64,000 nucleotides of DNA from an uncultured Gammaproteobacteria bacterium (GCA_964639945.1 CAZXHY010000002.1:183-64182); one strand, 5' to 3'. Positions 3 to 25,392 are shown, counted from the first letter of the stretch. Notes: generated by a model from the sequence alone, not told the origin. Program-made: numbers and translations.

Positions 3-518
3 GAAGAGCTTGCGGATACTTGCACTCTTTCTGAAGCCAGCGCCAACACGGGTACAATTGCCCTCACAACGGCTGGAACCACGGTCATGACCGTATTATC
101 TGGGTCTGGTGGTACAGGAGTCACAGTGGTCGATGCAAAAACTATCACACTTGCAGCAAATACCTCCATAAGCACGAGCTGCACCAATTGCCAGATCACC
201 GTAACCGGAAAACAAATATGGATAGATGACAGCGAGGCAGATGGGTATTCTGGTATTGCACAATCATCGTGGCCTACATATTTAGCAGACAATACGGGCA
301 CATTTCGTAGTGCAACAGCCGCCGGATATCGTCGCCGTTGTCTTATGCGCGGTACTACTGTAGATTGTAACGACGCTGCATACTCAACAGCAAACTCATG
401 TTACGGGGCATTTTACCCAGCATTTTACCCAGCATTTTACCCAGCATTTTATCCAACCTTTAGTCCATATGGCGGATTTGGTCCATACGGGACATTTTAC
501 CCTGTGTTTAACCCGTAA
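3..518 (+). CDS. 5'-truncated CDS; Thr/Ala-rich hypothetical protein ending in an (AFYP)x4 tandem peptide repeat
   Basis: The frame of ORF 87..518 is open back to position 3 of the window, so the gene starts upstream. The C-terminus reads AFYPAFYPAFYPAFYPTFSPYGGFGPYGTFYPVFNP. Confidence 0.5.
   Translation, partial: EELADTCTLSEASANTGTIALTTAGTTVMTVLSGSGGTGVTVVDAKTITLAANTSISTSCTNCQITVTGKQIWIDDSEADGYSGIAQSSWPTYLADNTGTFRSATAAGYRRRCLMRGTTVDCNDAAYSTANSCYGAFYPAFYPAFYPAFYPTFSPYGGFGPYGTFYPVFNP
408..455 (+). repeat. Perfect tandem repeat, 4 copies of the 12-nt unit gcattttaccca (last copy has one substitution), encoding AFYP
   Basis: Read directly: gcattttaccca gcattttaccca gcattttaccca gcattttatcca. 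Confidence 0.9.
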
Positions 519-645
519 AGTCTATAGCTAAATCCACGTGATTTTACACATATTTTACAGAGCTTGTAAGGATCACCACAAAAAAATCCACACAGTAGCG
601 CGGTATATAAACACACAATAAACAAGAGCAAAACGCCACGTTGTC

Positions 646-1038
646 TTACGGAGTCACTGTAACTGCGCCGATTATATACGGAGCCAAATGATCATGGACA
701 CCCCATGTTCCAGACTTGGTGAGTGTTACTTCCCACGTAGTGCCGGGTTTTATAGGCTGTTTAGGATCTAACTCAGAATAAAATGTGTGAGAAGGGTGCG
801 GATCAGATGCCGGCCAGTGCCAATACGTATCGCTATTCACAAATTTTATGGTAGAACCTACTGCCACCGTTATAGACTCTGGAGTGAACCCATCTTCCGT
901 GATAACTATCGTTTTACCATCAAGCTTCACTTGAGGCATCTTTTGTGCTTTATTTCTCTGTGATAGGCCAAAAACTACGCCGCTTCCCACAAGGCACACA
1001 AGCACTACTCCCCCAATAGCTACTATAGATTTTTTCAT
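646..1038 (-). CDS. Small membrane-anchored His-rich protein, cupredoxin-like fold suspected; probable start at MKKSIV
   Basis: N-terminal TM segment (IVAIGGVVLVCLVGSGVVFGL). The pattern TIVITEDGFTPESITVAVGSTIKFVN...WHWPASDPHPSH...WGVHDHLAPYIIGAVTV resembles single-domain cupredoxin-like proteins. Its ATG overlaps the upstream stop (ATGA) with gene 1035..2327. Confidence 0.55.
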   Translation of the reverse strand: MKKSIVAIGGVVLVCLVGSGVVFGLSQRNKAQKMPQVKLDGKTIVITEDGFTPESITVAVGSTIKFVNSDTYWHWPASDPHPSHTFYSELDPKQPIKPGTTWEVTLTKSGTWGVHDHLAPYIIGAVTVTP

Positions 1039-2327
1039 TCTTCTCCTTTCTTGTCCCCGCTTGTCGCTGGATTTATATGAACACATGCATCGTAGTACCC
1101 AAATTCAGATTGCTCACAATACGATTTGAGAATGTCAAAAGATTTATAATTCTCATAATTTGCAAACCCAATCAGCGCATAACAGGCAGGCTTTGCTGAA
1201 ATCGGTGCAAGCTTGCACACCTCAAATGGAATGGGGTTATTTAGAAGAGGGTCACGTAAACCAGCATATCTAGCTGCCCCACCGAAACAGTATCCATAGT
1301 ATCGTGGAGTTGAGCTTTTTATACACTGATCTGCCACACCACGTGCCGTATACTGCCCATTGATAAGGAGGTTATTCCCTATAGATTCATAACATCCCCG
1401 TACATACATATCCTTCTTCGTAGGATCTGACTCTGGAATATTGTCACAATTATGCATCATAACGGCTACATCACCTGTGTGAGACCTCCCAACTACATGA
1501 CCAAAACAATGCCCGCGAAATCGTTCATCTATCTCTTCACAAGGAAAGTAAACATCCTCAGGATCATATAATCGACGCACATTTTCTAACATGGTCAAAT
1601 CTGTGGTTCCAGGCATAGCTCCTGCATGAAACACACCAGACAAACACAACTGTACCGGATCATCTCCGAAATTCGATGAAACACCCTCACACATAGCCAA
1701 GGTTTGCACGAGTGTTTGATCGGTAAATACAGCCATACCATGACCAAACCAGTGCATGCATTGGTTTACATAATACAATTTTGATGTAACAAGTGGGTTT
1801 TCTAAACATGCCTTTCGAACTACTCTGGCTCGATCTGCTGGTGCAATATGGGACATTCCAATCTCAATCACCCCATGATAACAACCAAACGATCCCCACC
1901 CATCGCAATCCACTATGGTCTTCCCTATTTGAGCAATCAATAACGCTTCGTCTTTTATCGCTCTCCCGCTCCGCATACCAGTTCCAGCGAAAAGTGCATT
2001 ATCACCTATGGTGTGAGACAGATCATGTCCCCAACCTTGTAACGTTGGATGCTTTTGACTAACAGGCTCAATGATATCTAACGCAATTCTTGCACCAAAC
2101 TTACTCGAAACTTCACGCATAACCTGATTGACACAATTAAACAACGCGATCCCATCTTGTTTGGTGAGGCATTGTTCTGTTTTATATGAATAATACTTCA
2201 CAAGCACAATGTCCTTGAGGCTTACCGTAGGTGATAGTGGATTATTCGCATTCGGAACGACTGCAGCCCGAAACATAAGACTAAGCACAAACCCTGTTAT
2301 AAATATTCCAATAATAGTTCGTTTCAT
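1035..2327 (-). CDS. Cys/His-rich paralog family member 1 (430 aa), N-terminal signal anchor
   Basis: N-terminal TM helix. Carries GHDLSHTIGD, GCYHGVIEIG, WFGHGMAV and CLSGVFHA, which are equivalents of the family signature. Confidence 0.8.
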   Translation of the reverse strand: MKRTIIGIFITGFVLSLMFRAAVVPNANNPLSPTVSLKDIVLVKYYSYKTEQCLTKQDGIALFNCVNQVMREVSSKFGARIALDIIEPVSQKHPTLQGWGHDLSHTIGDNALFAGTGMRSGRAIKDEALLIAQIGKTIVDCDGWGSFGCYHGVIEIGMSHIAPADRARVVRKACLENPLVTSKLYYVNQCMHWFGHGMAVFTDQTLVQTLAMCEGVSSNFGDDPVQLCLSGVFHAGAMPGTTDLTMLENVRRLYDPEDVYFPCEEIDERFRGHCFGHVVGRSHTGDVAVMMHNCDNIPESDPTKKDMYVRGCYESIGNNLLINGQYTARGVADQCIKSSTPRYYGYCFGGAARYAGLRDPLLNNPIPFEVCKLAPISAKPACYALIGFANYENYKSFDILKSYCEQSEFGYYDACVHINPATSGDKKGEE

Positions 2328-2387
2328 AAAATGATTATCGCGCTATGTATCTGATGAGTATACCACCGTTTATACACGGAATGGATC

Positions 2388-3302
2388 TCACCGCTGAAAT
2401 TCTTTGACACACAAATCTACATACTCGTTTGGCAACTGTCGACACTGCGACAAATCATGAGTATTTTGTTTTTTAGCGTCGTCAATAATTACATGCATCA
2501 AGGTTTTTATGCAGCTATTCCGAGTCTCATCATGCGTAAAATAAGAACAATATGTAGCTGATGATTTCGTATCATTATTATATTTACGCGCACGAATTGA
2601 AAGCATTTGCTCACGCACACAAGCTGGCTGATATAATAACGGAATCGAATCACAGGGATAATACACATTGTCGTTTGCCCAAGGAACCTCATGTAATCCA
2701 TGCAATATATCCCCCACTCTATTCACATTCTCGTGAGTCACCCCTATCCAACATTGATAGCGCTCATTTGTAGCACCAAATACCGCATCACAAAATTGTA
2801 GTGATTCTATATACCAATACTTGTTTAAAAGCATTATGGTATATCCAACTCCTTGTAAACATCGATCTTGAGAGCTGACCTGTGAGCTTTGCATACACTC
2901 ACTGGAGATCACGCGCATCGTGTCACTGGAGTATCCATGCACCTGCACAGCGCCCAACATGACTCCGTAATAACACGGAAGCGGATGGGTCAATGTATCG
3001 CAAAAACTATACGCCGCAGATCCAACGTGCTTGTAAGCACTCTCCCCTATGACAGGGATCAAATCGTGCAGAACTCCAATATCCTCTGAGCCCACGAGCC
3101 TACCCAATACTTCGTACGCGACACGTGGCGACATCTTCATCGAAATAAAATGAATTATTTGCCCTTTCACGGGTAAACGCATATCTAAAAAAACAGATGG
3201 TAATCGAAGCACATACAACGCTCCTATAAATCCTGCGGCAAATACACAAATCAACAGAATGACAATATATGGATATCGAGTTTTGTGTATATTTTTTTTC
3301 AT
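2388..3302 (-). CDS. Cys/His-rich paralog family member 2 (304 aa, short form)
   Basis: TM anchor. Carries IGESAYKHVG, CYYGVMLGAV, CLQGVGYTIM, CWIGVTHENV. Closest paralog is 5385..6431 (NVYYPCDSIPLLYQPACVREQ vs NVYAPCDTLPLAYQPACVREH). Confidence 0.8.
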   Translation of the reverse strand: MKKNIHKTRYPYIVILLICVFAAGFIGALYVLRLPSVFLDMRLPVKGQIIHFISMKMSPRVAYEVLGRLVGSEDIGVLHDLIPVIGESAYKHVGSAAYSFCDTLTHPLPCYYGVMLGAVQVHGYSSDTMRVISSECMQSSQVSSQDRCLQGVGYTIMLLNKYWYIESLQFCDAVFGATNERYQCWIGVTHENVNRVGDILHGLHEVPWANDNVYYPCDSIPLLYQPACVREQMLSIRARKYNNDTKSSATYCSYFTHDETRNSCIKTLMHVIIDDAKKQNTHDLSQCRQLPNEYVDLCVKEFQR

Positions 3303-3323
3303 AAAATAGTACGAACTATATGC

Positions 3324-4376
3324 TCATTTGGCATTAAAATCTGCTTTCATATTCTGCACTTCTTGCTCACATTGCACACGAAATTTCTCTTCTGTGACAC
3401 CGCATATGGCTAACGCTAATTTCCCACTTGGATCAATCACCAATGGCTGCACTATAGACCCAAGTAGACATGGCAGCTCTTGCTCGGTCACCATATGACA
3501 CACTGCAACGACTTGTTGTGGATCTGCTTGTACCTCTGCATACACCGCTCCACCCACCGCTTTTTCGCACTGTAGCTTCTCAAAATCAGGTAATGCCTGA
3601 CACACACGCATTCCTTTCTGAATAGATTTATGAAATGTATATGTCACCATCGCGCCATCATATATACATTTAAATCTAAACTGACTTGGGATCTTATTGC
3701 AGTAATCTATCACATCGTCTGGCAAAGAATTGGGTGTATGGGACATAGTCGGAGGACGAAATATCTCCATAAATACCCCACTTGCACAGTCACTCCGTGC
3801 GTCGTTTCCCGACAATTTTGTACAACGCAACAACGCATCCTCAACTCGATACCCAGCAAGTTCTGCAAATACATGTCCCAAGCCATGATGACATGCTATT
3901 TGCTGTATATGTGTTAATGTTTGGCCACCCGTTACCTCACACAACTCTGATACGTTATCCAATAATGATGGTTTTACCCTCACCCTACCAGCGATAACTC
4001 CATGTACGCATCCAAACTCACAACTTCGACCACACGCATTTACAAGGGTTGCCATCGAAGCATCTGTACGACTGGCAACTTCTCCGATTATATGTCCCAT
4101 ATCATGACACCCTAGAGAAAGTGGCATCGCAGAATCCTGATGATTTATATTTGTTGTTTCTATAACTCGCATGAGTCCCTGTACTACCATAGGCGATCGA
4201 ACATACGGGGAAAAAGAAAACTCTAAGCAAATTATACGTCGGCGCCCACTATGCTGGGCACACTGCGCGTACAAGGTTTCAATTCGCAAAACCGTCAGCG
4301 TTCTAGTATGTACCCCCCAAAATAAACCACAAAAAAATACAGCGCTGACAAAAAATGTCCCATATAATTGCCTCAT
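3324..4376 (-). CDS. Cys/His-rich paralog family member 3 (350 aa)
   Basis: TM anchor. Carries CHDMGHIIGE, FGCVHGVIAG, CHHGLGHVFAE, CASGVFMEIF. Overlaps the stop of 4373..5383 (ATGA). Confidence 0.85.
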   Translation of the reverse strand: MRQLYGTFFVSAVFFCGLFWGVHTRTLTVLRIETLYAQCAQHSGRRRIICLEFSFSPYVRSPMVVQGLMRVIETTNINHQDSAMPLSLGCHDMGHIIGEVASRTDASMATLVNACGRSCEFGCVHGVIAGRVRVKPSLLDNVSELCEVTGGQTLTHIQQIACHHGLGHVFAELAGYRVEDALLRCTKLSGNDARSDCASGVFMEIFRPPTMSHTPNSLPDDVIDYCNKIPSQFRFKCIYDGAMVTYTFHKSIQKGMRVCQALPDFEKLQCEKAVGGAVYAEVQADPQQVVAVCHMVTEQELPCLLGSIVQPLVIDPSGKLALAICGVTEEKFRVQCEQEVQNMKADFNAK

Positions 4377-5383
4377 AGATTCCGTGATGACTCGTCTAAA
4401 ATAATTTCACACGTCTTTTTAGAATCTTTTTCTTTTAACATAGAACACAGCGGTGCAACGCGCCAAGACTGATCAACGCTTTGATACGTTCTAAGTATTC
4501 CGATCATACATGAATCAGAGTAGTCTACGATTCCCGTGCACACAGGCACGGGATCTACACCATTGGATAGATACTGCTTTGCAGCAATTGCCCCAACTCC
4601 ATACAAACATCTCTCTAGCACAGTTGACTCGTTAAAATTTCTACAATACGCAACAAGCTCTGACATGGAAAAGGCATACTCATCTGTTATATATGTGAGA
4701 ACAAGCTCCACACACCCTGTTTTATAAATCGTAGGATACGAATCACACATTCGAATCAATGCACTATCATTACGCTCCGCGGGAAACAGAGAGGATCGAT
4801 AGGTATTGAAATATTCCATAAACACCCCAAGGCCACAATGCATTTGCTCGTTTGGTATGGGAAAAAATTTATCACACAACTTGAGAGCCTTTGGTATATC
4901 AAAATCTGCTAATGTTGCGCTGGCGTGCCCCAGTGGATCACTACAATTTGCACTACTTCGTGTCTGATGTATGCACGCATCGTATAATTTTTCTAAAAAT
5001 ACTGGATCTGGCCCATGAAGACGGGCCACATACTGAACAACTCCATGATAACAACCAAAATTATACTTCGTATCGCACATACCAATCGCCGAAAGTCCAT
5101 GTCTACGATAGGTTTCCTCGCCAATGTAGTGACCTATGATGTGCATCCATGGTAACTCCTGAGGAAACGCCTGTTTAAGTTCGATATTAACCAAAAACAT
5201 CGGCTGAGAGCGTACCATGGTATAAATAACTTCTTGCAATTCCTTTCCCTGCAACGAGCTCAAGACACTTGGAGTGATATGCGTTCGATAGAATGATACC
5301 CACCTATACATACCCACACCAACCCCTATGATCAGCACTATACAAAGGATGCGAATTGCCAGTGGTAATCGAATATGTTTCAT
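4373..5383 (-). CDS. Cys/His-rich paralog family member 4 (336 aa)
   Basis: TM anchor. Carries IGHYIGEETYRRHG, FGCYHGVVQY, GHASAT, CGLGVFMEYF. Closest paralog is 6507..7502. Confidence 0.85.
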   Translation of the reverse strand: MKHIRLPLAIRILCIVLIIGVGVGMYRWVSFYRTHITPSVLSSLQGKELQEVIYTMVRSQPMFLVNIELKQAFPQELPWMHIIGHYIGEETYRRHGLSAIGMCDTKYNFGCYHGVVQYVARLHGPDPVFLEKLYDACIHQTRSSANCSDPLGHASATLADFDIPKALKLCDKFFPIPNEQMHCGLGVFMEYFNTYRSSLFPAERNDSALIRMCDSYPTIYKTGCVELVLTYITDEYAFSMSELVAYCRNFNESTVLERCLYGVGAIAAKQYLSNGVDPVPVCTGIVDYSDSCMIGILRTYQSVDQSWRVAPLCSMLKEKDSKKTCEIILDESSRNL

Positions 5384-5384
5384 A

Positions 5385-6431
5385 TTATGGAACTCGCTGA
5401 TCCCCTATTGTATATAAACTATCCTTCGCTTCTTTAGCTCCTTTTTCACATGCACTCTGGTGTGCAGACGGGAGTACAGAACACAACTTATTGGCCATAT
5501 CAACACGACCAGAAAAAGCGTATTGGCGAGACGCCACTCCTATGCAATACGTGAAATACTGAGCAGGTACTTTCCCGCATTCTATAATTATTCTGTCGGG
5601 AGTCTGTGGATCATCTTGATACAGAGCCCCTCCAATAGCACCAAAACACTGCATTCGAATATCCTGATCATTGAAGTGCATACAATGCCCACTTGTTCGC
5701 ACGGTATCCCGATCATACAAAACGAGCCGTGCAAGAAACACATGTTCCCGCACGCAGGCCGGTTGATACGCGAGTGGCAGCGTGTCACAGGGAGCATACA
5801 CGTTTTTAGGATCTATAGGATTGGTTGCCAAGCCTGCTGGCAAATCCCCGCGACGAACGACGTTCTCCATAGAAACACCATCCCAACAAAAAAAACGCAA
5901 TTCGCGATCTTTCTCAAACACGCCGTCACATGCTTGATATGACTCAAGCAAATTATAATTTCGAACCCACATCAGGCCATGCCCAATTCCATGAGCACAA
6001 GAAATATCTGCTGTCCTATTTTTCCCTGCGTTCTCACACCCTTGTGCCAACTCTAGCAACACAGACTGTTGATATCCACGAGCACGTATTGCAGCAAGTA
6101 TCACTCCGTGATAACACGCAAACGTAAAAACAGAGTCACAATCACGAAAACCAGCAGTTCCGTAACGGGCGTATGCGGTCTCTCCAATCAAATGTGCAAG
6201 CTCATGCTCTTCGGCGGGTTGATCTGGATACGCTGCCAACAAAACATTTCGCAGACGCACAGGAGACACCTGCATTCCAATAGTGCGAAACATAGCCAAA
6301 CGTTTTTCTTTCGGCATCTCGCGGATTTGTCTCCCAAACAGACCGCTCATGTACCAATGCTGAGAGAAACCCACGCCTACCCCTAAGAAAAAAAATAATA
6401 CAATCAAAATAAATCGTTGCATATATCGCAC
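5385..6431 (-). CDS. Cys/His-rich paralog family member 5 (348 aa)
   Basis: TM anchor. Carries AHLIGETAYARYG, FACYHGVILAA, CAHGIGHGLMW, CWDGVSMENV. Confidence 0.85.
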   Translation of the reverse strand: MRYMQRFILIVLFFFLGVGVGFSQHWYMSGLFGRQIREMPKEKRLAMFRTIGMQVSPVRLRNVLLAAYPDQPAEEHELAHLIGETAYARYGTAGFRDCDSVFTFACYHGVILAAIRARGYQQSVLLELAQGCENAGKNRTADISCAHGIGHGLMWVRNYNLLESYQACDGVFEKDRELRFFCWDGVSMENVVRRGDLPAGLATNPIDPKNVYAPCDTLPLAYQPACVREHVFLARLVLYDRDTVRTSGHCMHFNDQDIRMQCFGAIGGALYQDDPQTPDRIIIECGKVPAQYFTYCIGVASRQYAFSGRVDMANKLCSVLPSAHQSACEKGAKEAKDSLYTIGDQRVP

Positions 6432-6506
6432 CTCTAGCCTATTCTACCTTCTTTGATCAATCCGTACGAAGTCCCACATCCCCTAGCCGCCCACTCGGAT
6501 CAATTA

Positions 6507-7502
6507 TTAATTCAGCTGGTCTGAAACCCGCGCTATCTTGATCTGGCACAACTCTTTATCTGCAAGAAGGGTTAATGCATCACAAACTATACGCGCATCG
6601 TGCAATTTATGTGCGGCAAGATATGGAACATTCACGCCAAAAGCACACCATGCAAAATCATTCCCTGCACCTTTACACACGGCAACTGCTTGCGCTGGAT
6701 CAGTAAAATACTTTTGCCCTATGATAGAGCCAGTCGCATCTACACAGTGTGTTCTGGTATCAAAACGATCGAACGTTTGACAATACCGTAAAACGCGGCC
6801 AAAATCTTCATTCCATATCGCCTTTAAATAAGAAATGTGCATACTCACGCATGAGCTTTCGTATTTACTAGGAAACGTATTACATGGAAAATACGGATTT
6901 TGAGTATTTCCATAATCAGTCCTTGGCGCGTTGGGGGCAGAACGATTTATATACTCCATCATGGCACCATTCCAACAAGAAAACGCTACCTTTGTGTCTG
7001 GATACATTTGGTCGCATAATTCAAACGCTTTGACGACATCATAAGAGGTGACGATCGCACTCGCGTGCCCTAATGGATGAATACAGGGGCTTGCATCAGC
7101 AAGGGTATCATCACAAGATTTTTTTAAATCAAACACCAATGTTTCATTCGGTCCAGCTATGCGTATTGCCATGTCCACCACGCCATGGTAACACCCATAA
7201 TTAAATAGTGGATCGCATAGACCAAATGCCTTGCTTCCATACCGCCTGTATACTTCTTCACCATATAAGTGTCCCACCCCATGCGAAATAGGCTCCTGCG
7301 CAGGATATACAACATCCAAAAAAGACCGCACTTCTGCAAGTGGCCTATTTGTGATTAACCATCCAAGGGTTGTGCGCATTTTGGCCCCATCCAACGCGCG
7401 AAATACATCAGGATTTGTATACTGTTGAAAACGTACGACAAAACTAGCAAAACCAACCAACAAGCCAAAACAGTAGGCTATCAAAATAACGTACCGATGC
7501 AT
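6507..7502 (-). CDS. Cys/His-rich paralog family member 6 (331 aa)
   Basis: TM anchor. Carries VGHLYGEEVYRRYG, YGCYHGVVDM, GHASAI, CWNGAMMEYI. Confidence 0.85.
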   Translation of the reverse strand: MHRYVILIAYCFGLLVGFASFVVRFQQYTNPDVFRALDGAKMRTTLGWLITNRPLAEVRSFLDVVYPAQEPISHGVGHLYGEEVYRRYGSKAFGLCDPLFNYGCYHGVVDMAIRIAGPNETLVFDLKKSCDDTLADASPCIHPLGHASAIVTSYDVVKAFELCDQMYPDTKVAFSCWNGAMMEYINRSAPNAPRTDYGNTQNPYFPCNTFPSKYESSCVSMHISYLKAIWNEDFGRVLRYCQTFDRFDTRTHCVDATGSIIGQKYFTDPAQAVAVCKGAGNDFAWCAFGVNVPYLAAHKLHDARIVCDALTLLADKELCQIKIARVSDQLN

Positions 7503-7505
7503 AAT

Positions 7506-8582
7506 CTACTTTACTCCTTTAATCTCACGAAGCCTTGCGAGAGCATACTTCATGCATGAGGGCTCTATATCTTGCCCTGTTTTTTTACATAATTGGACGG
7601 CCTGTACACCATCCCCATGGATAGATAACGATGACAAAACTGCTCCCTCAATGCATTTTTTTACGAACGGCCCAGCTAACAAACACTCATGTATGATGGC
7701 AGTGATATTCTCATGCTCCACAAAATACACATCTGACCCGATAGTTGAGATGCATTTGTCTTGGTCATCAGATAAATATGTACGACACAGGTCAAAGGCT
7801 GCCATTATATTATGTGTCCATCTATACTGTGTCGTGATCATCATTCGCATACAAAATGCGCGAGGTATATCTTCTAGCCCACCACAGTGTATAAAAAGAT
7901 CCTCTGGAATTGGCATTGGGTCATGCCCAAAATCAACCGGTGAATACACTTCCATAAATACACCCGTCCAACATTCTTGTTGCGCATCTACGGTACCCAG
8001 CCTATTACAATAGTCCATAGCATCACGAACTGAGTATCTTGCGTATTCTGCAAGACCGTGCCCAAGGCCATGGTAACAGGCAATTTTATCTGTTAAGTTT
8101 CTAGAATTCTTATTTGTTTCTTTACAAAAATTTTCAAGATTGTTTAACCCGTCATAATTCCGTTTTAATGCTCCCATTAGCACTCCATGTGTACATCCAT
8201 ATCCACACCTTGCACCACACGAGGAAATCAACTGGGAGGGATTTGCCTTTTCTGACGAACCAATCACCTCACCCACAAGATGAGAAAGCGCATGACAGTC
8301 ATATCCACTTTGTGTATCCGATGAACGGATAAGGGTATAATTTTTCTCCTCAAGCTCTTGCATTATGAGATTGAGATTTGACGAACCTACAATATGCCGA
8401 TACTCATCACGAAAACACGCTGAAGCTTCAACGCCAGAAACAGTTGCACATTTTTGTTGAACATGTTTCATTCGAAGCGATAACCCAAACTCAGTTCTAA
8501 ACACATATCCGTATATAAACCCCAGCAAAAAGCTAAAGAAAATAATCACTTCGAATATCCTTTTTGTGCTGATATACTTCAT
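7506..8582 (-). CDS. Cys/His-rich paralog family member 7 (358 aa), the clearest example of the fourfold signature
   Basis: TM anchor. Carries CHALSHLVGE, GCTHGVLMGA, CYHGLGHGLAE, CWTGVFMEVY. Confidence 0.85.
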   Translation of the reverse strand: MKYISTKRIFEVIIFFSFLLGFIYGYVFRTEFGLSLRMKHVQQKCATVSGVEASACFRDEYRHIVGSSNLNLIMQELEEKNYTLIRSSDTQSGYDCHALSHLVGEVIGSSEKANPSQLISSCGARCGYGCTHGVLMGALKRNYDGLNNLENFCKETNKNSRNLTDKIACYHGLGHGLAEYARYSVRDAMDYCNRLGTVDAQQECWTGVFMEVYSPVDFGHDPMPIPEDLFIHCGGLEDIPRAFCMRMMITTQYRWTHNIMAAFDLCRTYLSDDQDKCISTIGSDVYFVEHENITAIIHECLLAGPFVKKCIEGAVLSSLSIHGDGVQAVQLCKKTGQDIEPSCMKYALARLREIKGVK

Positions 8583-8585
8583 AAA

Positions 8586-9785
8586 CTACTGTGCAATACT
8601 CGTCATACAAGCATGCTTACTGGCAACACCAGAAACAGTTTGACACGCTTGTTTTCTGACAAAATCACCAAATCGCAAAAACAAAAACTCACCTGTCACC
8701 CTATAACAATGTTCTTGAAGAGACGAGGTGAGCATGGAGCATGCTGCTAAAGCGCGTTTTCCATACGTATCGTTTACGTTATCGATAATTGTACGTATAA
8801 AACCAGTGGTGCATTCTGGTGCATGAATATCCGGCAATTGATCACACTGCGAAATATCTTCAATCTTGTGGTGCCTGTTGTATATCGCCTCACCGACTCG
8901 ACTACGACACTTAGTACGTGCATCGAGCGGTGATGCATCGCAAATATCAAAAGCATGTATCGCTTGATTCGTAAGTCCGTACTGAGTAAATCCTATAAAC
9001 TCAAAACAAGAAAGCTCCACCTTCCCAGAAAGTGACGCGCAATACGCTAATAATTTTTCAGGCGTGATAGATATCTCACTGTTTTGCATGGGTTCCATAA
9101 AGATTGCGTGTGCACACTGATACCGAGCCTCATCATTTGGCATAACCAAACACTCTGATACAGCACGCTGAAAATCATTTCCATTCTTCTCACGCAAGCC
9201 ATGACCAATGCCATGATAGCAGCCCATACGCGCAGGTTCTGGTATAGAAGGAGTAGAACATTTAGCTGACGCCTCAGTAACATTTTGTGACATAAGCACC
9301 CATGTGTGACCCGCACCATTCATGCATCCCAAATCTATACCATCGATTGGTTCTCTCCCGTCTCCAAAGTCACACAATCCAATACACTGAGTCATAAGAA
9401 CATCTGAGGGTGTACCAAACCTTGCTGCTGCATTTCCTATTTCATGTGCGAGCGCATGACATCGCATACCCTGTAAGTAAGAACCATTTGATGTTCTCAT
9501 GTAGGAACGGAGCGCTGAAATCGTAGAGGCAATCCCATAAGATCTCACCATACCCACAACTTCCTTAAAATAACATCGCTGTCTTGGTGTTCCCTCAAAA
9601 AAATCGGCGCCTGCATACCTTTCACACGAAACAAACCGCGATCGAAGCACTGAAGCAAGCGAAGCGTGTCGCAGCACTGGAACGGAAATAAACCATCCAA
9701 GTCCCGACATCAATCCAAAAGAAAACATTACGGCCATAGCTAGCCTTCGCAACCGATGTATTTGTTGTGTTCTATTTTTTTGCAT
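8586..9785 (-). CDS. Cys/His-rich paralog family member 8 (399 aa)
   Basis: TM anchor. Carries CHALAHEIGN, GCMNGAGHTW, CYHGIGHGLRE, CAHAIFMEPM. Confidence 0.85.
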   Translation of the reverse strand: MQKNRTQQIHRLRRLAMAVMFSFGLMSGLGWFISVPVLRHASLASVLRSRFVSCERYAGADFFEGTPRQRCYFKEVVGMVRSYGIASTISALRSYMRTSNGSYLQGMRCHALAHEIGNAAARFGTPSDVLMTQCIGLCDFGDGREPIDGIDLGCMNGAGHTWVLMSQNVTEASAKCSTPSIPEPARMGCYHGIGHGLREKNGNDFQRAVSECLVMPNDEARYQCAHAIFMEPMQNSEISITPEKLLAYCASLSGKVELSCFEFIGFTQYGLTNQAIHAFDICDASPLDARTKCRSRVGEAIYNRHHKIEDISQCDQLPDIHAPECTTGFIRTIIDNVNDTYGKRALAACSMLTSSLQEHCYRVTGEFLFLRFGDFVRKQACQTVSGVASKHACMTSIAQ

Positions 9786-11424
9786 ATATCATTTGGTAAA
9801 CATTGTATCGCACGGTACTATCTACCAACTTGGCTTCTTTAGGCAAATCTCGCGACCCAACATACCTCTTGTCTACTACAAACATCTTTTGGCTCGCCTT
9901 TCTGCCCATGAGCGACTCGCCAGTACTTCCCCAAGTAGTGACGCCATTAAATGTTTCAGGCATCCTCGCAGGATATAATTCTATAAAATAAAGCATTTCA
10001 TACGTGTACGGGCTTTCATACGTTCCTTCGTGGTATTTATATACAACGAGATCATATGGGTCTTCCTTGGCATGGTGAGCGATCATCCACGACACCGTTT
10101 TTAAGTCTTTATACGCCCAGTCAACTTCGCTATGTTTCCATAAATAATCTCGTATCACCACCATGTTGAGAAAGGTAAATATATATATACACACGACCAC
10201 AACTACTCTCCATACAAATGTTCGCTGCTGCAGCGCTCGCACACAAAAATACGCAAAACAAAGCAAAAACATGGGCAACGCAAATACCATATTATTCATT
10301 CGTGAAAAATCATTAATCACCTGATCCACGTACAAGTACTCCACAAACATAGCTACCGGTAAACACATAAGCCACCATGAAATCACAAGCGGCCAGTATT
10401 TCCCATTCGCGACATGCTCAAGCTCCATCTTCTTTCTATTTAGAAAACGAGTGTTGAGCACATAGACTCCAGTGCCTACCCACGTAGTAAAAAGTGCTAA
10501 CGGCCATATGCGAGACCCCACATATTCCAATATCGCTTTTATATACAGTTCAGAAAGGATCGAAACACCTAGGGCAGATTTTACAAATCCCCACATACCA
10601 TCACCAATCGAGGATATAGTCGGGAGTGACGTGTATGCCACATGAGACAACGCCTTCACCATGCGAAAATTCTCAAACACTTCAGTAAGCACAGTTGGCG
10701 CGATTGGAACGAAAGCAAATATAGCAAGCAGCGCTAGCTGAAACCACCCACGTGGCAAACTAGGCTTATAAAAAAACAGTGCAGCTCCAAAAAATACTAA
10801 GGGCACAAATCCAGAGTCATGCACCTGTGAACCGAGAGACATCGATAAAATAAGCGGATACCACCAAATCACTTTTCCGCCAATAACTCGTAAAAAACTT
10901 ACGAGCGACAATAAAGAAAAAAATGGCACCATACTCGGCGTCCATATCCACCTACTGTACGCTGACAACCAAAACGATATTGCCCCAAAAAAAGCAGCGA
11001 CCACACCTACCGCCCTACTTCCAAACAGCAAAACTCCTGCATCATAGAGCATGTAGACAACACACAGACCCAAAAGTATCAAAAATAACACCACGCCATA
11101 CGGCTCAAACTGTGCAATCACAGCAGCTGGTAACAGTAAGTAATAGTACGCGATTCCGTGATAGATGGGATTAGACTCTTCAGGGGCTAAATATGAAGAT
11201 CTATACGTCCCCATTTGTCCTTTTATGGGTAAATTTTGTAGATTTCCTGACGACATATCTCTCCAGATTGTACGAACGGAAAGCATATCGTCGACCTGCT
11301 CTTTCCAAAACGGTATGTACACATTGGATTGATATAGTCGTATGAACGCAGATAGCAATAAAACACCTATCAATATCCACTGATATATCTGTATACCCCT
11401 CATTCGCCACATGTATTTGCGCAT
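9772..11424 (-). CDS. Polytopic membrane glycosyltransferase, GT-C fold (ArnT/PMT-like, lipid-carrier dependent), embedded in the Cys/His-rich array
   Basis: 550 aa with more than 10 predicted TM helices. The acidic DD motif (KEQVDDML) sits in the first extracytoplasmic loop after TM1, as in GT-C enzymes. The soluble C-terminal domain overlaps the downstream gene by 14 nt. Confidence 0.65.
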   Translation of the reverse strand: MRKYMWRMRGIQIYQWILIGVLLLSAFIRLYQSNVYIPFWKEQVDDMLSVRTIWRDMSSGNLQNLPIKGQMGTYRSSYLAPEESNPIYHGIAYYYLLLPAAVIAQFEPYGVVLFLILLGLCVVYMLYDAGVLLFGSRAVGVVAAFFGAISFWLSAYSRWIWTPSMVPFFSLLSLVSFLRVIGGKVIWWYPLILSMSLGSQVHDSGFVPLVFFGAALFFYKPSLPRGWFQLALLAIFAFVPIAPTVLTEVFENFRMVKALSHVAYTSLPTISSIGDGMWGFVKSALGVSILSELYIKAILEYVGSRIWPLALFTTWVGTGVYVLNTRFLNRKKMELEHVANGKYWPLVISWWLMCLPVAMFVEYLYVDQVINDFSRMNNMVFALPMFLLCFAYFCVRALQQRTFVWRVVVVVCIYIFTFLNMVVIRDYLWKHSEVDWAYKDLKTVSWMIAHHAKEDPYDLVVYKYHEGTYESPYTYEMLYFIELYPARMPETFNGVTTWGSTGESLMGRKASQKMFVVDKRYVGSRDLPKEAKLVDSTVRYNVYQMIYAKK

Positions 11425-11428
11425 AATG

Positions 11429-12697
11429 TTAGTATTTCAACGTTTTCCCATCCAAACAAGCATTTCTATATAGTACCGATACCTGCTCACAAATTTGATT
11501 CTTTTCATTTTTTGTTTTTCGCTCTTCCAAAACGCCTCCTATAATCGAAAAGCATCGAAGCTGCTCAGATACATCAAGGCTTTGACATAACTGTATACCT
11601 GTTTTTACGTTTGGCTCGACAAACACTGATGATCGTATAAGTCCAGCGATACAAGCGAAATACATATCTGGCTCTGCCAGCTTACAAAATGCTTGAATTT
11701 CTTGTAAATATTCTTCTTTATGTTGATACACATAAAATATATTCTGCCCTATACCACTTACACATGTCTCTCTATACAACTCGGGGACTTGTCTACAGAC
11801 GCTAAACGATTTTTGGTTATCTTGTGCCCTACTGTACTCATACGAACCCGCACGATCATAACAATATGCATCGTATGGAGACCATAACGCGCCACACCAC
11901 ATTGGATTGTTATTAGGAATTTGTTGCGGAGCTTGCGCAAACGTCGCCGCTTCATACATTTCCATAAAAACCCCAGCTGCACATCCAATACGCCCTTCTG
12001 GAATGATCTGATCACAAAGCTTAAGTGATTCAACCAAATTGTATGCTGACACGTCCGCAACTGCATGCCCCACCTCATGGAAACACCCTCCTTGTGCTTC
12101 ACGATTTCCTGCCCAATCGACACCATCTATGCATAGCGTTGTTATTGTGCTTTTTAAATCATTTCCCATTCCATACCATGCAGAAACCGCTCCGTGCTGA
12201 CAACCGGACACGCACGCATTGGTACACTGAGGTAAAGTTATTTGCACACGACGACTTGTCATAGTACCCGCCCAGCCAATCGCATGAGCAAGATCATGAC
12301 ATTGCGTAAAATTTCTACCTGTTGTTTGTGCGTCTAACCGACGCGTAAGCGCTTGCATAAACGTCCTCGTCCCCCACTTAGGCATATCTGCCAGAAGTTT
12401 TTTTTGTGCACAAATCATAAATTTTGTTCGGTCCGCATCATTACCCCTAAAGCACTGCTCTATCGCGTGTTGCAATGCTAGATCTGCTCCGATTACTCGC
12501 CACTCAATAGGGCGTGGTCCAAATCGATATGAGAAGTTATTAAATGCTACAAACCCACTCACAATTGAAAAAAGGCATACTACACCTATTAAAAATTTCG
12601 ATGGAAAAAAATTCATTCGTTTCATTATACTCGAGTGCCACGAGGGAATATGTATGCTACTGAATAAAATCCGTCTGCACTTCATACACACAAGCAT
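11429..12697 (-). CDS. Cys/His-rich paralog family member 9 (422 aa; true start possibly at internal MKRMNFF, nt 12625)
   Basis: Carries CHDLAHAIGW, SGCQHGAVSA, CFHEVGHAVAD, CAAGVFMEMY. The TM anchor FLIGVVCLFSIVSGFVAF follows the internal Met. Confidence 0.8.
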   Translation of the reverse strand: MLVCMKCRRILFSSIHIPSWHSSIMKRMNFFPSKFLIGVVCLFSIVSGFVAFNNFSYRFGPRPIEWRVIGADLALQHAIEQCFRGNDADRTKFMICAQKKLLADMPKWGTRTFMQALTRRLDAQTTGRNFTQCHDLAHAIGWAGTMTSRRVQITLPQCTNACVSGCQHGAVSAWYGMGNDLKSTITTLCIDGVDWAGNREAQGGCFHEVGHAVADVSAYNLVESLKLCDQIIPEGRIGCAAGVFMEMYEAATFAQAPQQIPNNNPMWCGALWSPYDAYCYDRAGSYEYSRAQDNQKSFSVCRQVPELYRETCVSGIGQNIFYVYQHKEEYLQEIQAFCKLAEPDMYFACIAGLIRSSVFVEPNVKTGIQLCQSLDVSEQLRCFSIIGGVLEERKTKNEKNQICEQVSVLYRNACLDGKTLKY

Positions 12698-13667
12698 CGT
12701 AACGCTCTGGAAGCACCTGACGACAATAATCTTGAATATTCACTCTTTGTGCTTGAGTGAGCGGGTACACAAAATATAGTCCGCGACCGATAAATGTTAA
12801 ACAATCAAATTGATATTCTTGTGGTTCCTTTCTGCATATAGCGATAGCAGCATCGAGATTTTGTGTTCGGGTATATTCAAAAAATCCTGACGCAGCATAA
12901 CAAACCTCATCATACGGCGCCTCAAACCGTGCGCACCAATTTGGTCTATCCTGTGGTAGCTCTCGAAGCACGCCGTTACTATACTCTGTCCCATCGTATA
13001 CCTCCATAAATACACCAGAACCGCAATTAGACCTATCCTTCATATCATATATATTGCAATACTCAAGCGAGCGCAGTACGTCATATGATCCCATGGGGGT
13101 AATAGCGTGCCCAATTCCATGAATGCAAGAATATTTCTTCTCTCCGGAAATACCAGGGGTCAAACAAATCGAAGTAAAATTCTTGCCTAATGATTCACCC
13201 TTGGTGACCCACCCTACCGAAGCACCATGGAAGCATCCTGACTGACAAAGATCAGTGCACGCCGTAAGTATCTCTTTCATACCGACACCCAACAACACCG
13301 CATTCTTTCCAAGTTGATGTGTGACATCATGACACCGAGTTACCGCTAGATCAGTCTTGGGCTGTGTAGCTCGCCTTTCCGTAGTAGCAATAACAAGGGG
13401 CTCCAATCCCCAACGAGGAATTTCCTTTGATATCTCATTGCTGAGGCATCGAACGATGGCAGATCTATGCTTAGGCAAATCACACACCGTAACGATTCGA
13501 GCCATTGCAGCGTTTGCTCCTGCTTGGCGTACGCGTGCGCTATGTGGTCCGATTCGAATAGAAAATGACCAAAATATCAGAAATCCTAACGAAAAAACAA
13601 TAATAGTAGCCACCACAAAAAATCCTACGCGCCGAACGTGCATTCGGCTATCCATGAAGTTGTGCAT
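12657..13667 (-). CDS. Cys/His-rich paralog family member 10 (336 aa)
   Basis: TM anchor. Carries CHDVTHQLGK, SGCFHGASVG, CIHGIGHAIT, CGSGVFMEVY. Sister of 11429..12697. Confidence 0.85.
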   Translation of the reverse strand: MHNFMDSRMHVRRVGFFVVATIIVFSLGFLIFWSFSIRIGPHSARVRQAGANAAMARIVTVCDLPKHRSAIVRCLSNEISKEIPRWGLEPLVIATTERRATQPKTDLAVTRCHDVTHQLGKNAVLLGVGMKEILTACTDLCQSGCFHGASVGWVTKGESLGKNFTSICLTPGISGEKKYSCIHGIGHAITPMGSYDVLRSLEYCNIYDMKDRSNCGSGVFMEVYDGTEYSNGVLRELPQDRPNWCARFEAPYDEVCYAASGFFEYTRTQNLDAAIAICRKEPQEYQFDCLTFIGRGLYFVYPLTQAQRVNIQDYCRQVLPERYDACVYEVQTDFIQ

Positions 13668-13693
13668 ATGGGAAGAAAAAAACAGAAACTACT

Positions 13694-14407
13694 TCAATAA
13701 ACACGATAAAATCCAACAATCGTTCCATCACAGGATATCGCATATGCACCCTGATTTTGGGAAAGTAGCACAGAAACCATTTGCTTTGGCGTCAGCGTTT
13801 TGGATACCTGATCAAACATAACCGTGTGTTCTCCTGTTGCAGTGCTTACGACAGACAAATTCTGTCCCTGCTTTACTCGAATAAACGGAGGGTTTATTTC
13901 ACAGGTATCGGCTACTGTGATACTTTTTACATTTACTGCCAACGTGTTGATTGCTTCAACAAATACTTTTTTTTCTTCATCTGTGGCTCCCTGCAACGGC
14001 ATACTTATGAAACTTCCTCGCACAACAACAAGCTTCGTGTTTGCTGCTGGGGCAACTGTTGTGTTCTTTTCATTGGTAAATGTTGGCCATTTCCAAACCA
14101 TGGACACTTTTGGCAATGCAATTGTCGGCATCAGGCTTCTTATTTTATCAGTGTTAATGGATATACGAGGCAAGGATGGTAAAATTGGCATATGGGCAGC
14201 GACATATTCACCGCTCAAATTCCCTAAATAAAATACAAATACATATACTATTCCCCATCCCAACCATTTTAAAATTCTGCGCCACATTGGAATACGGGTG
14301 GACACATCAGAAACATTTTTTGATAGAGCGCCTAACCGAGAAATATTATTCTTTCCTACAGCGAGATTAGAACGATTACGCATTTGTTTTTTTATCATAC
14401 ATTTCAC
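13694..14407 (-). CDS. Hypothetical membrane-anchored protein (237 aa)
   Basis: Long ORF with a single TM segment (WLGWGIVYVFVFYLGNL) and a C-terminal extracytoplasmic domain. No recognisable motifs. Confidence 0.6.
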   Translation of the reverse strand: MKCMIKKQMRNRSNLAVGKNNISRLGALSKNVSDVSTRIPMWRRILKWLGWGIVYVFVFYLGNLSGEYVAAHMPILPSLPRISINTDKIRSLMPTIALPKVSMVWKWPTFTNEKNTTVAPAANTKLVVVRGSFISMPLQGATDEEKKVFVEAINTLAVNVKSITVADTCEINPPFIRVKQGQNLSVVSTATGEHTVMFDQVSKTLTPKQMVSVLLSQNQGAYAISCDGTIVGFYRVY

Positions 14408-14442
14408 TCATTTACCACAACTTAATCCATAGTATATCACGA

Positions 14443-15057
14443 CTATTGTATAGTCAATTTTGTAATAATCGAGTGACCAAAATAATCACTTGCTAAAGCA
14501 TCTTTGGGACTATCGAGGCTAGTAATATTTAACTGCCCGTCTCCATTGTCATGGTACAGCGCCACATATAAAGAAGACCCACTGCGAAATGTTGACACAT
14601 CTTTGTATACCATGTGCGCATTGTCGGCTTTCAACTGAATATTGGTGTACACACCCGGAAGCAGCAAACCAGATGCTGCGACAGGGTCTCGCATACCAGA
14701 ATCATACTCTACACCCAAAAATAAAACGAGGTATCCTGACTTCTGTAACATAGCCTTCCCCACCACATACTGATTTCGGTCAAATTCCTTACTTGAGTAT
14801 GTGATATATTCTGACCGAAAAATATGTCTACTTATAAGCTGTCGCCAAGCAAACCATGTGTCGTTTGAGAGAAATAAGAAAAAAAGAAACACTGTTACGA
14901 GCGAAATGGTGCTAGAAATCAAAAAAATGACGAGCCATGACTTGGGCCCATCAGCCTTTAGCTGACTTACACGCTGCTTCTCAGGGGCGACTCCCCCACT
15001 CATGGCTGTTTGAGTGACGGGTGTTATCGGTGATACAACCGGTACAGGTTCAGGCAT
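14443..15057 (-). CDS. Membrane-anchored protein with a Pro/Val-rich N-terminal tail (204 aa); paralog of 15064..15675
   Basis: N-terminus MPEPVPVVSPITPVTQ, one TM helix, and a ~130-aa C-terminal domain. Architecture is shared with the adjacent gene. Confidence 0.6.
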   Translation of the reverse strand: MPEPVPVVSPITPVTQTAMSGGVAPEKQRVSQLKADGPKSWLVIFLISSTISLVTVFLFFLFLSNDTWFAWRQLISRHIFRSEYITYSSKEFDRNQYVVGKAMLQKSGYLVLFLGVEYDSGMRDPVAASGLLLPGVYTNIQLKADNAHMVYKDVSTFRSGSSLYVALYHDNGDGQLNITSLDSPKDALASDYFGHSIITKLTIQ

Positions 15058-15063
15058 ATAGCA

Positions 15064-15675
15064 TTATTTAGTAACTCCAATTACAGTTTTTGCAAAAATT
15101 CTATCTCCATTCTTATCGGTAACAAAAATTGGATTTTTAAATTCACCAGATCCATCAGTATCATATGCGATGGTAACTATGACCTGTGTTTTGGGAGGTA
15201 ACGCTGGTTGATCCGTCGTACCGTCAAGGTTAGTCATCGTAATGTTAGGTATCCGGATAGTTGCGTTTGACACAGTACCTTGGGGTAAATAATCAGAAAC
15301 ACCAAAAACCTCATTGCAGTTTTTATCATTGGGGAAATACACCGCAGAGACGACGATCCATCCAGGCTTTCGAAGTCGTGCTTTGTGCACGATAATATCA
15401 AAATAATCATCTCCCATCACCCCCGCATCAGCCACGATATATTCACGCCCCGTTATATATTGGGCCACAACGCCTTTCCACCAATACCACGGTTCCAAAG
15501 GCATAATGACCAAAATAGTCAAAAGCAAGATAATATTCACTAATCCAGAAACAATCCATGGCGTCAACCATCTCACAGTCACAGGGGGAGTATTTTTTGA
15601 AACAGCGCTAACTGCCGGTGAAGCATTTACCAAAGAAGAAGCAACTGGAACCACAGGAGTAGCGGGCGCGTCCAT
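15064..15675 (-). CDS. Membrane-anchored protein with a Pro/Ala/Val-rich N-terminal tail (203 aa); paralog of 14443..15057
   Basis: N-terminus MDAPATPVVPVASS...PPVTVRW, one TM helix, and a C-terminal beta-rich-looking domain. Confidence 0.6.
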   Translation of the reverse strand: MDAPATPVVPVASSLVNASPAVSAVSKNTPPVTVRWLTPWIVSGLVNIILLLTILVIMPLEPWYWWKGVVAQYITGREYIVADAGVMGDDYFDIIVHKARLRKPGWIVVSAVYFPNDKNCNEVFGVSDYLPQGTVSNATIRIPNITMTNLDGTTDQPALPPKTQVIVTIAYDTDGSGEFKNPIFVTDKNGDRIFAKTVIGVTK

Positions 15676-24402: not shown

Positions 24403-25392
24403 CTAGTTATCATGTCTATTCTCTAAAATGATCTTCGCCTGATCATAGCAAATACCTTGATTTATTTGAGATAATGATTTGCATGCGACAGATGCTAGCC
24501 TTCCCACTCCATCTTCCGCAATTACCCCCTGTATAAACCCATACAAACAGCCTGTTGTCGCACGAACGTCTTCTCTCTGACAGGAAAGAATAGCATGTTG
24601 AAAGTCGACAGTACCAGCCAGATATATAGATTCTCCTATATGCGTATAACAACGAAACCGTAAGGACACGTCAGGAAGAGCAGAACACCCCATAAACTCT
24701 TGATCTAGTGTTCCGTATGACATATGCGAATCAAGTGTAGGAACAAAAAACTCCATAAAAACTCCGTCTAGACACTGAGCCTTATATTCCTCGGTGTAAA
24801 TTTTATCGCACAATTGCAGCGCATCAACCATAGATGGTGCTCCAACCTGCGCATACACATGTCCGAAAGCATGATAACAATTTATTGTTTCCATAGTGGA
24901 AGCAGATACGTCTGAAATCCCACATATTTGCTCAATCATAGAAATGGCAGACGGATTTGCCTTAATCTTTTCTAGGATAACTCCATGGACACACCCATCC
25001 CCACACGTTCGCCCTGTGCCGCACGACCTAATCAACGTTGGAATCGATGTCTCACTGCGAGCTACTATTTCGCCGATAATGTGACCTATCGTGTGACAGG
25101 TCGAGATACTACCATTTCTTGAAAAGAACTCTGGTGATTTTGCATGAGTCTCAAGATATTGCATAACAAACGGTAGTGTATGTGGCGATACAATAGGCCA
25201 AAGTCTTTGTCGCAAACAGCCTATGTATGCTTGATTTTGTATATTTTTTGCACACACAGCGAGTGTTTGTTGCAACGATCGAACGAGCACTTTCTCGCTG
25301 AATACATTTCCAAAAAATCCGATCCCTAACCCGATACAGAACACGCAAAGCGTCGTTCCCAACTTCCGAATATTTATTATATTTCTCATCAT
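24403..25392 (-). CDS. Cys/His-rich paralog family member 11 (start taken at MMRNIINI)
   Basis: TM anchor. Carries CHTIGHIIGE, DGCVHGVILE, CYHAFGHVYAQ, CLDGVFMEFF. The ATGATGA overlap with the stop of the upstream methyltransferase was checked in sequence at 25387-25392. Confidence 0.85.
   Translation of the reverse strand: MMRNIINIRKLGTTLCVFCIGLGIGFFGNVFSEKVLVRSLQQTLAVCAKNIQNQAYIGCLRQRLWPIVSPHTLPFVMQYLETHAKSPEFFSRNGSISTCHTIGHIIGEIVARSETSIPTLIRSCGTGRTCGDGCVHGVILEKIKANPSAISMIEQICGISDVSASTMETINCYHAFGHVYAQVGAPSMVDALQLCDKIYTEEYKAQCLDGVFMEFFVPTLDSHMSYGTLDQEFMGCSALPDVSLRFRCYTHIGESIYLAGTVDFQHAILSCQREDVRATTGCLYGFIQGVIAEDGVGRLASVACKSLSQINQGICYDQAKIILENRHDN

Follow-up and report, generated by a model that had tools for sequence, protein, structure and literature searches.

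What do the ten paralogous genes near the start of this stretch of DNA encode: a variable set of surface adhesins, or something else? The window, as we call the whole stretch of 64,000 nucleotides (nt) analysed here (from an uncultured Gammaproteobacteria bacterium, GCA_964639945.1, CAZXHY010000002.1:183-64182), carries these genes on the minus strand between positions 1035 and 13667, with two distal relatives at 24403-25392 and 26943-27989. A first interpretation, referred to below as the sequence-only reading, had seen in them a family that was repeatedly duplicated and then diversified as adhesins or effectors. From their conserved residues, together with fusions and neighbouring genes, the twelve proteins appear instead to represent an undescribed kind of metalloprotein at the cell surface rather than a set of variable adhesins. 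With somewhat less than even confidence, we propose an extracytoplasmic, probably binuclear copper or iron centre that is carried on a disulfide-stapled solenoid and functions jointly with a small redox or metal protein.

One family on a disulfide-closed helical scaffold

The twelve open reading frames (ORFs) marked out by the sequence-only reading are all present in the ORF list of the window, and their translations (304-430 amino acids (aa), with 12-23 Cys and 9-14 His each) belong to one family. The family hidden Markov model (HMM) matched all twelve with E values of 2e-54 to 1e-116 and found no thirteenth member among the six-frame ORFs of the window. The MAFFT alignment of the paralogs contains invariant Cys columns. 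Identity is 16-32% among the twelve and 16-28% to the reference paralog, 7506-8582, which supplies the residue numbering used throughout (H97, C126, M210 and so on). The subfamily pairs that had been proposed were recovered, namely 2388 with 5385 (32% identity), 4373 with 6507 (28%), 3324 with 7506 (27%) and 11429 with 12657 (30%). Four signature blocks run through the alignment in the order foreseen: C-H-x3-H-x2-G-[E/R], G-C-x-H-G, C-x-H-G-x-G-H and C-x2-G-V-F-M-E. The first block had been given as beginning C-x-H, which the alignment corrects, and 2388 and 26943 have lost most of the His signature. The 10-16 Cys originally counted per protein were also too few, as the ectodomains by themselves hold 12-20, an even number in 12/12 proteins. 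One hydrophobic segment, at the N-terminus, is present in each of the twelve paralogs, as expected of the anchor that had been suggested.

The follow-ups named together with the sequence-only reading included the family alignment, a structure prediction and structure search for 7506-8582, and a survey of copy number and genomic context. The AlphaFold2 model of 7506-8582, built on a 24-sequence alignment, scored 90.8 for the predicted local distance difference test (pLDDT) and 0.86 for the predicted template-modelling score (pTM). It is all-alpha, and its 18 helices comprise a membrane helix at the N-terminus and, after it, paired helices. Internal repeats were detected with an HHalign probability of 97%, and the structural matches of the model were generic or designed helical repeats only. 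On this model, the ectodomain is an alpha/alpha-hairpin solenoid of about eight repeats of ~35 aa, without a close solved relative. Each paralog is thereby predicted to be a type-II-like membrane-anchored protein whose hairpin loops are each closed by a disulfide.

The distribution of Cys was followed through 322 domain instances, comprising the window paralogs, 169 database proteins and genomic loci:

C96/C126: both present in 238, neither in 84, one alone in 0
C122/C130: both present in 177, neither in 145, one alone in 0
C300/C310: both present in 316, neither in 6, one alone in 0

C153/C169 and C192/C204 are invariant. Every pair bridges the end of one helix and the start of the next, and the spacing of the pairs averages ~35 aa. 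This strict pairwise co-occurrence indicates that the Cys form structural disulfides. Together with the N-terminal anchor, it argues for an extracytoplasmic, oxidised domain and against Cys as metal ligands. The paralogs are thus membrane-anchored and probably extracytoplasmic, which agrees with the earlier description of them as rich in disulfides or metal ligands and exposed outside the cytoplasm.

In architecture, the nearest parallel is with the Sel1-like Helicobacter cysteine-rich proteins HcpB and HcpC, which are secreted and consist of ~35-residue alpha/alpha hairpins, with one disulfide each, stacked into a solenoid. The present family also has ~35-aa alpha/alpha repeats with one disulfide per repeat and an extracytoplasmic location; the likeness is one of architecture only. 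In contrast to true Sel1 proteins, none of ten paralogs matched the Sel1 profile (PF08238) at Pfam E <= 1, and the model found no superposition on solved Sel1-like repeat (SLR) or Hcp chains.

The sequence-only reading could not place these proteins in any known family, and neither could we. Pfam-A and NCBIfam scans of ten paralogs returned nothing at Pfam E <= 1, a 12-bit match to SsaH being noise, and profiles of 12 and of 65 sequences had zero matches among PDB chains at E <= 10. In literature searches on the motifs, and on the candidate phyla radiation (CPR) with cupredoxin or cytochrome b5, no paper turned up that describes the family; where cupredoxins appear in one CPR paper, it is only as putative donors to NirK. 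The three familiar classes that had been set aside from the start were also rejected here on motif counts and on the all-alpha model. An HExxH zincin is excluded because the second residue of the HxxxH motif varies (HExxH occurs by chance in 2/12 paralogs). CxxCH is absent from 12/12 paralogs, which excludes a c-type cytochrome. The 18 helices, without a Greek-key beta-sandwich, exclude a cupredoxin fold for the twelve. Since every membership test that was run ended without a family match, we rate the family as new at the level of both family and candidate site; it has no curated family, name or solved relative.

The family is large. When 1.84 billion representatives, clustered at 50% identity, were scanned exhaustively with HMMER, 7,910 clusters were found at E <= 1e-3 and 3,054 at E <= 1e-30. 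Among the 120 matches listed by a separate, word-indexed search, every name given by the source was "hypothetical protein", bar one cupredoxin fusion (JGI "plastocyanin"). Some chains hold 2-14 matched family stretches, and at least two occur in 59 of the 169 representatives retrieved. Three long or composite chains stand out by their fusions: to GH3 and LRV/HEAT repeats (P0022, 3,580 aa), to GH114 (P0271, 632 aa) and to FG-GAP repeats (P0030, 1,677 aa). At least 472 family loci lie in GTDB representative genomes; 80 of these were listed, and all locus statistics given here (neighbours, copy number and taxa) refer to those 80. Patescibacteria/CPR labels account for 63 of them (Saccharibacteria, Doudnabacteria, many Parcubacteria groups and Peregrinibacteria), Actinomycetota for seven (Thermoleophilia, Gaiellaceae, Rubrobacteraceae and others) and a Woesearchaeota archaeon (DPANN) for one, and the remainder bear other or vague labels. 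An exact-DNA search of the GTDB representatives returned no match to the window; its gene content and the taxa in which the family occurs suggest a CPR origin for it. Four metagenome-assembled genomes labelled 'uncultured Gammaproteobacteria' (L006, L013, L030 and L064) carry standard family genes, and these labels may be wrong. A weak match (P0169, 453 aa, E 1.6e-10), which bears the label of an MMETSP eukaryotic transcript, could be either a contaminant or a eukaryotic homolog.

The conserved His/Met/Glu cluster and its proposed small partners

The most conserved feature of the family is a set of seven residues, scored in the same 322 instances:

H97: 99% conserved
H101: 98% conserved
H132: 98% conserved
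H171: 99% conserved
H175: 100% conserved
M210: 97% conserved
E211: 89% conserved

The five His and the Met are complete in 302/322 instances, including the intrachain tandem copies that were inspected, and small residues (G104, G133, G174 and G207) adjoin the conserved positions. The commonest replacements are M210 to H (5) or N (3), E211 to Q (27), H132 to N (3) and H171 to D (2), which by residue type are metal-ligand-like. Among the paralogs, conservation is 26% in the site-bearing repeats compared to 11% in the preceding segment and 18% in the C-terminal repeats (12% without the Cys columns). A variable binding surface as the key feature is not supported; what is most conserved across phyla is this His5-Met(-Glu) cluster.

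Within the window, seven paralogs keep the full set. The features are given below, with site strings for three of them; a full site means five His plus M210 and E211.

1035-2327, minus strand: paralog, 430 aa; HMM E 3e-74; M210H and E211A, giving six His; string HHDHHHHA
2388-3302, minus strand: paralog, 304 aa; HMM E 2e-66; His signature degenerate, Cys pairs retained; string HPEYQYHE
3324-4376, minus strand: paralog, 350 aa; full site
4373-5383, minus strand: paralog, 336 aa; H171 replaced by Asp
5385-6431, minus strand: paralog, 345-348 aa; full site; likely start ~6422
6507-7502, minus strand: paralog, 331 aa; full site
7506-8582, minus strand: paralog, 358 aa, the reference for numbering and for AlphaFold2; full site; HMM E 1e-116
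8586-9785, minus strand: paralog, 399 aa; H132 replaced by Asn, with the same change in orthologs
11429-12625, minus strand: paralog, 398 aa; full site; likely start at ATG 12625
12657-13667, minus strand: paralog, 336 aa; full site; without the last repeat
24403-25392, minus strand: distal paralog, 329 aa; HMM E 1e-82; full site; likely start 25392
26943-27989, plus strand: distal paralog, the most divergent, 348 aa; HMM E 2e-54; first three site positions lost; string LSKRHHME

The variants of 1035 (M210H, E211A) and 8586 (H132N) recur in their orthologs in another genome, L001.

In the model, H97/H101, H132, H171/H175 and M210/E211 are placed towards the N-termini of four consecutive "B" helices, which run parallel in the solenoid, and C96-C126 links the first two. 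The cluster thus consists of two i/i+4 His pairs, one lone His and one Met-Glu. From these helix positions and the C96-C126 tie we infer a putative metal centre, probably binuclear; the identity of the metal, a redox role and a substrate are likewise conjectural. The residues on the four neighbouring helices would form a centre with one His3 and one His2-Met site and the Glu nearby. Copper would be preferred because of the Met ligand, the M-to-H swaps and the link to cupredoxins described below, and iron is possible; zinc or a purely structural role are further possibilities. Electrons, or else the metal, would pass between the centre and a small partner anchored in the membrane, of cupredoxin-like or cytochrome-b5-like type and encoded beside the family domain or fused to it. 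By analogy, the ligand arithmetic resembles that of type-3 copper proteins (tyrosinase and hemocyanin), di-iron hemerythrin and the His3 plus His2Met sites of PHM/DBM: the family has two HxxxH pairs, a lone His, a Met or sixth His (the latter in the M210H variant) and a nearby carboxylate. In contrast to type-3 copper proteins and hemerythrin, the helices are parallel in a solenoid, not in an up-down bundle, and no profile, sequence or fold match to any of these proteins was found.

One candidate for such a partner lies within the array unit itself. The gene at 646-1038 encodes a protein that scores 29.2 bits with Pfam Cupredoxin_1 (cut-off 27) and contains the motifs HWPASDPHPSH and HDH. Its probable start, the ATG at 1038 with GGAG upstream, overlaps the stop of paralog 1035-2327 as ATGA. 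Aligned with plastocyanin, it has both His ligands in the matching places, whereas a gap beside HDH takes the place of Cys84 and Ile stands for Met92; HPSH and HDH contribute additional His. Without the blue-copper Cys and Met ligands and with the extra His, it is therefore not a classical type-1 electron carrier. Elsewhere, a cupredoxin-like domain is fused to the family domain in 19/169 representatives (local profile), placed N-terminally, C-terminally or interleaved in the longer members (Pfam Cupredoxin_1), and these fused domains carry HWPASD-HP-H and HDH, identical motifs to those of 646-1038.

The second kind of partner is b5-like. A b5-like gene is the commonest neighbour, 0-10 nt downstream on the same strand in 14/80 listed loci; a cupredoxin-like gene takes this position in 2/80, and one further locus is a fusion. 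The b5-like protein is small and membrane-anchored, with two conserved His and two conserved Cys, and its Cyt-b5 match (E 4e-4) is below the cut-off; one canonical Cyt-b5 domain is fused to the family domain (Pfam). Two different small redox or metal domains at the same position, both also found fused, are the main functional clue. Neither this link, nor the size of the family, nor 646-1038 as a member of the unit had figured in the sequence-only reading. The b5-like gene is mainly found in Saccharibacteria-type and Actinomycetota loci, and it also lies downstream in L013 and L030, two of the loci labelled gammaproteobacterial; L030 is a 914-kb contig.

Several points weigh against the metal-redox proposal. 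The proposed convergence of the seven residues derives solely from helix register and the C96-C126 link, and two window paralogs, 2388 and 26943, have a degenerate site. A b5 or cupredoxin partner is near only ~20% of the listed loci, and the cupredoxin-like partner, having no type-1 Cys or Met, may bind metal and not shuttle electrons. Fusions to GH3, GH114, FG-GAP and LRV/HEAT, with up to 14 stretches per chain, would suit a binding or scaffold module. Many CPR bacteria also lack respiratory chains and so offer no obvious source of electrons.

The partner evidence can also be turned towards metal capture, buffering or delivery outside the cytoplasm without catalysis, as in EfeO or in CopC/YcnI-type copper handling of monoderm bacteria. 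The His/Met/Glu site would then hold copper or iron that is passed to or from the His-rich cupredoxin-like partner. We regard this as unlikely. In its favour, carriers of Cu(I)/Cu(II) outside the cytoplasm typically use His and Met as ligands, a His-only partner site suits binding over electron shuttling, the cupredoxin plus helical domain architecture recurs in many fusions, and many site-retaining copies per chain suit storage or buffering. A metal-related neighbourhood also adjoins one family array (L005, 3751-12186): its four family genes, with a fifth, unmatched 261-aa ORF inside, lie ~1.2 kb from the alpha and beta genes of nitrile hydratase and the cobalt-transporter subunit CbtA. EfeO itself likewise combines a cupredoxin-like domain with an all-alpha domain that has a conserved His/Glu site, an arrangement seen here as fusions and as an adjacent gene. 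However, neither the paralogs nor the cupredoxin fusions gave a Peptidase_M75 or imelysin-like match, HxxE motif logic and any PDB sequence match are absent, and no EfeO or imelysin chain appeared among the structural matches. Nor does EfeU/FTR1, EfeB, CopD or a P-type ATPase recur beside the gene in the 80 listed loci. Furthermore, the alternative b5-like partner has an electron-carrier fold, and simple buffering poorly explains ten individually conserved paralogs.

A conserved operon and the adhesin alternative

The minus-strand genes run without a break from 646 to 15675 in the ORF list of the window, and this 15-gene block is collinear in three other genomes, L001, L090 and L092. In the window it consists of the ten paralogs, a GT-C-like membrane protein, three small conserved proteins and the cupredoxin-like protein. 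The shared order is two DUF7282-like genes, a ~220-aa gene, 2-4 family genes, a ~550-aa membrane protein (doubled in tandem in L001), 6-7 family genes and the cupredoxin-like gene. The members of the block other than the paralogs, and the signals at its ends, are as follows:

588-603, minus strand: terminator-like hairpin plus T-run just 3' of the cupredoxin-like gene, a probable operon end; a consensus match alone, from a scan that overall was not above chance
646-1038, minus strand: cupredoxin-like protein, membrane-anchored, ~130 aa from ATG 1038; the ORF reaches 1086
9772-11424, minus strand: polytopic membrane protein, 550 aa, inside the array; ~8 hydrophobic segments
13694-14407, minus strand: membrane-anchored 237-aa protein, conserved, upstream in the operon; no Pfam match
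14443-15675, minus strand: two DUF7282-like small proteins (14443-15057 and 15064-15675) at the operon head; Pfam DUF7282
15715-15686, minus strand: promoter-like site upstream of the operon head genes

The genes are packed like an operon, and we read 646-15675 as a single conserved operon. In this respect the tight packing that had been described holds, but ATGA overlaps are limited to two, junctions span -14 to +75 nt, and one gap (6431 to 6507, 75 nt) is longer than the 60 nt claimed. The paralogs are likewise consecutive on the minus strand as reported, save that the 550-aa membrane protein interrupts them. The DUF7282 matches have E values of 6e-4 (14443-15057, below the cut-off) and 9e-7 (15064-15675). 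The three small membrane-anchored proteins at the operon head (13694-15675) are kept in L090 and L092, with the DUF7282-like genes likewise upstream of the array and orthologs of the 237-aa protein (37-41% identity) at an equal position. By eye, the C-terminus of that protein is cupredoxin-like; the cupredoxin profile gives no match.

Orthology extends to individual paralogs. The window paralogs have 1:1 best matches of 37-59% identity in L001, L090 and L092, compared to 22-32% between window paralogs: 59% for 1035 in both L001 and L092, 53% (L001) and 52% (L092) for 5385, 46-52% for 6507, 42-51% for 11429 and 37-44% for 12657. An identity of 22-32% lies well past synonymous saturation, which makes dN/dS between the subfamilies uninformative. 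The cupredoxin-like gene has orthologs at the matching operon end in L001 and L092 (60% identity in L092), and the distal paralog 24403 resembles an L001 gene (2080; 32% identity) in an ortholog-like manner. Since 1:1 orthologs occur in conserved order, the paralogs are older than these lineages and have been maintained individually, which argues against a rapidly diversifying adhesin repertoire and favours non-redundant modules of one system. The paralogs therefore predate the split of at least four genomes, so that repeated duplication followed by diversification as adhesins or effectors is not supported. Over 3.6-5 kb, contigs of four other samples match the window with 99.9-100% identity, and with the 1:1 orthologs this led us to reject a hypervariable or diversifying locus, contrary to the variability that had been suggested.

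A rival reading, that of the sequence-only interpretation, is a surface adhesin or host-interaction family, whose solenoid scaffolds would bind protein or glycan through variable surfaces directed at the host and whose His cluster would be purely structural. In its favour, the proteins sit outside the cytoplasm on a membrane anchor, helical repeats are a well-known type of binding scaffold, and the paralogs share no more than ~10-12% identity once the site and the Cys columns are set aside. The expansion of the family occurs in a genome that is rich in glycosylation genes and probably that of an episymbiont, and the family includes long multi-copy chains and FG-GAP and LRV/HEAT fusions. We nevertheless think a binding role of this kind improbable on balance, at about the same level as metal capture. 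The strongest constraint falls on the His5-Met(-Glu) cluster, which is kept across phyla, and the recurrent fused partner is cupredoxin-like and not an adhesion domain. One copy per locus is the rule in 79/80 listed loci of named genomes, and the orthology, gene order and near-identical contigs described above leave little room for variation.

Returning to the metalloprotein proposal, the ten paralogs probably act as non-redundant modules. Because the domain occurs as 2-14 stretches in one chain elsewhere, side-by-side action can be inferred, and the separately anchored paralogs possibly associate in this way. A bolder extension is that the ten, like the 14-stretch chains, assemble into a multi-centre surface redox array served by cupredoxin-like or b5-like carriers; we consider this doubtful, and less to be expected than any reading discussed so far.

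The glycosylation island and the meaning of the family

The membrane protein encoded inside the array, 9772-11424, is probably a PMT_2/GT-C-type glycosyltransferase. It has no Pfam match itself, is 47% and 44% identical to L001 genes, of which the 44% relative has a weak PMT_2 match, and is 48-53% identical to the same-position genes in L090 and L092. The remainder of the window is a glycosylation island, in keeping with what had been noted beside the array. Its polytopic GT-C-like proteins number at least 13 (PMT_2, GT87, DUF2079, YfhO-like and unassigned), and beside them are encoded seven GT2 enzymes, three DegT aminotransferases, a sugar epimerase and several methyltransferases. The distal paralog 24403-25392 is itself flanked by two methyltransferase genes.

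This setting, the GT-C-like gene inside the array in all four genomes and the single GH3 and GH114 fusions would fit an envelope-glycan module. The paralogs would then act on lipid-linked or cell-wall glycans, either as hydrolases or lyases that depend on a metal, or without catalysis of their own as partners or substrates of the GT-C enzymes. This is very unlikely, as the GT-C association is confined to the expanded-array lineage and was unseen around the 80 listed loci of named genomes, the two glycoside-hydrolase fusions among Pfam-scanned representatives compare with 19 cupredoxin fusions in 169, and searches by fold and by sequence showed no resemblance to any carbohydrate-active enzyme. 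An anti-phage defence system was rejected, since PADLOC had no match for nine operon proteins.

Other observations concern the rest of the window, in which neither a tRNA nor an Rfam element was found. Between 15759 and 54440, the density of GT-C-type proteins is exceptional. They include the paralog sets 15759 with 18597, 36868 with 41359, and 35279 with 47786 and 42941, and their genes are interleaved with GT2, DegT aminotransferase and methyltransferase genes. Three further ORFs deserve mention:

50254-52119, plus strand: polytopic protein with a weak, below-cut-off GT87 match and a C-terminal NPCBM/NEW2 domain (E 6e-32), an unusual combination of a transferase-like protein with a lectin-like module
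54448-63924, minus strand: giant ORF of 3,158 aa, with no Pfam domain at E <= 0.01
87-518, plus strand: ORF of 143 aa that ends in consecutive FYP(A/T) tetrapeptides (AFYPAFYPAFYPAFYPTFSPYGG...), with no Pfam match

If the signature is a metal centre, the family would be a new bioinorganic scaffold and a rare handle on the surface chemistry of ultrasmall, respiration-poor bacteria. If, in addition, the paralogs formed the doubtful redox array described above, CPR/Patescibacteria and other monoderm ultrasmall cells would possess an unrecognised redox chemistry at their surface, which might oxidise glycans of the host or of their own envelope or exchange electrons with the outside. The window offers a natural experiment on such a site, with ten conserved paralogs, ligand-type swaps (M to H, H to N and H to D) and two lost sites across the family members of the window. 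Even without a metal, the family would merit a curated model, since it is common at the cell surface in a major bacterial radiation.

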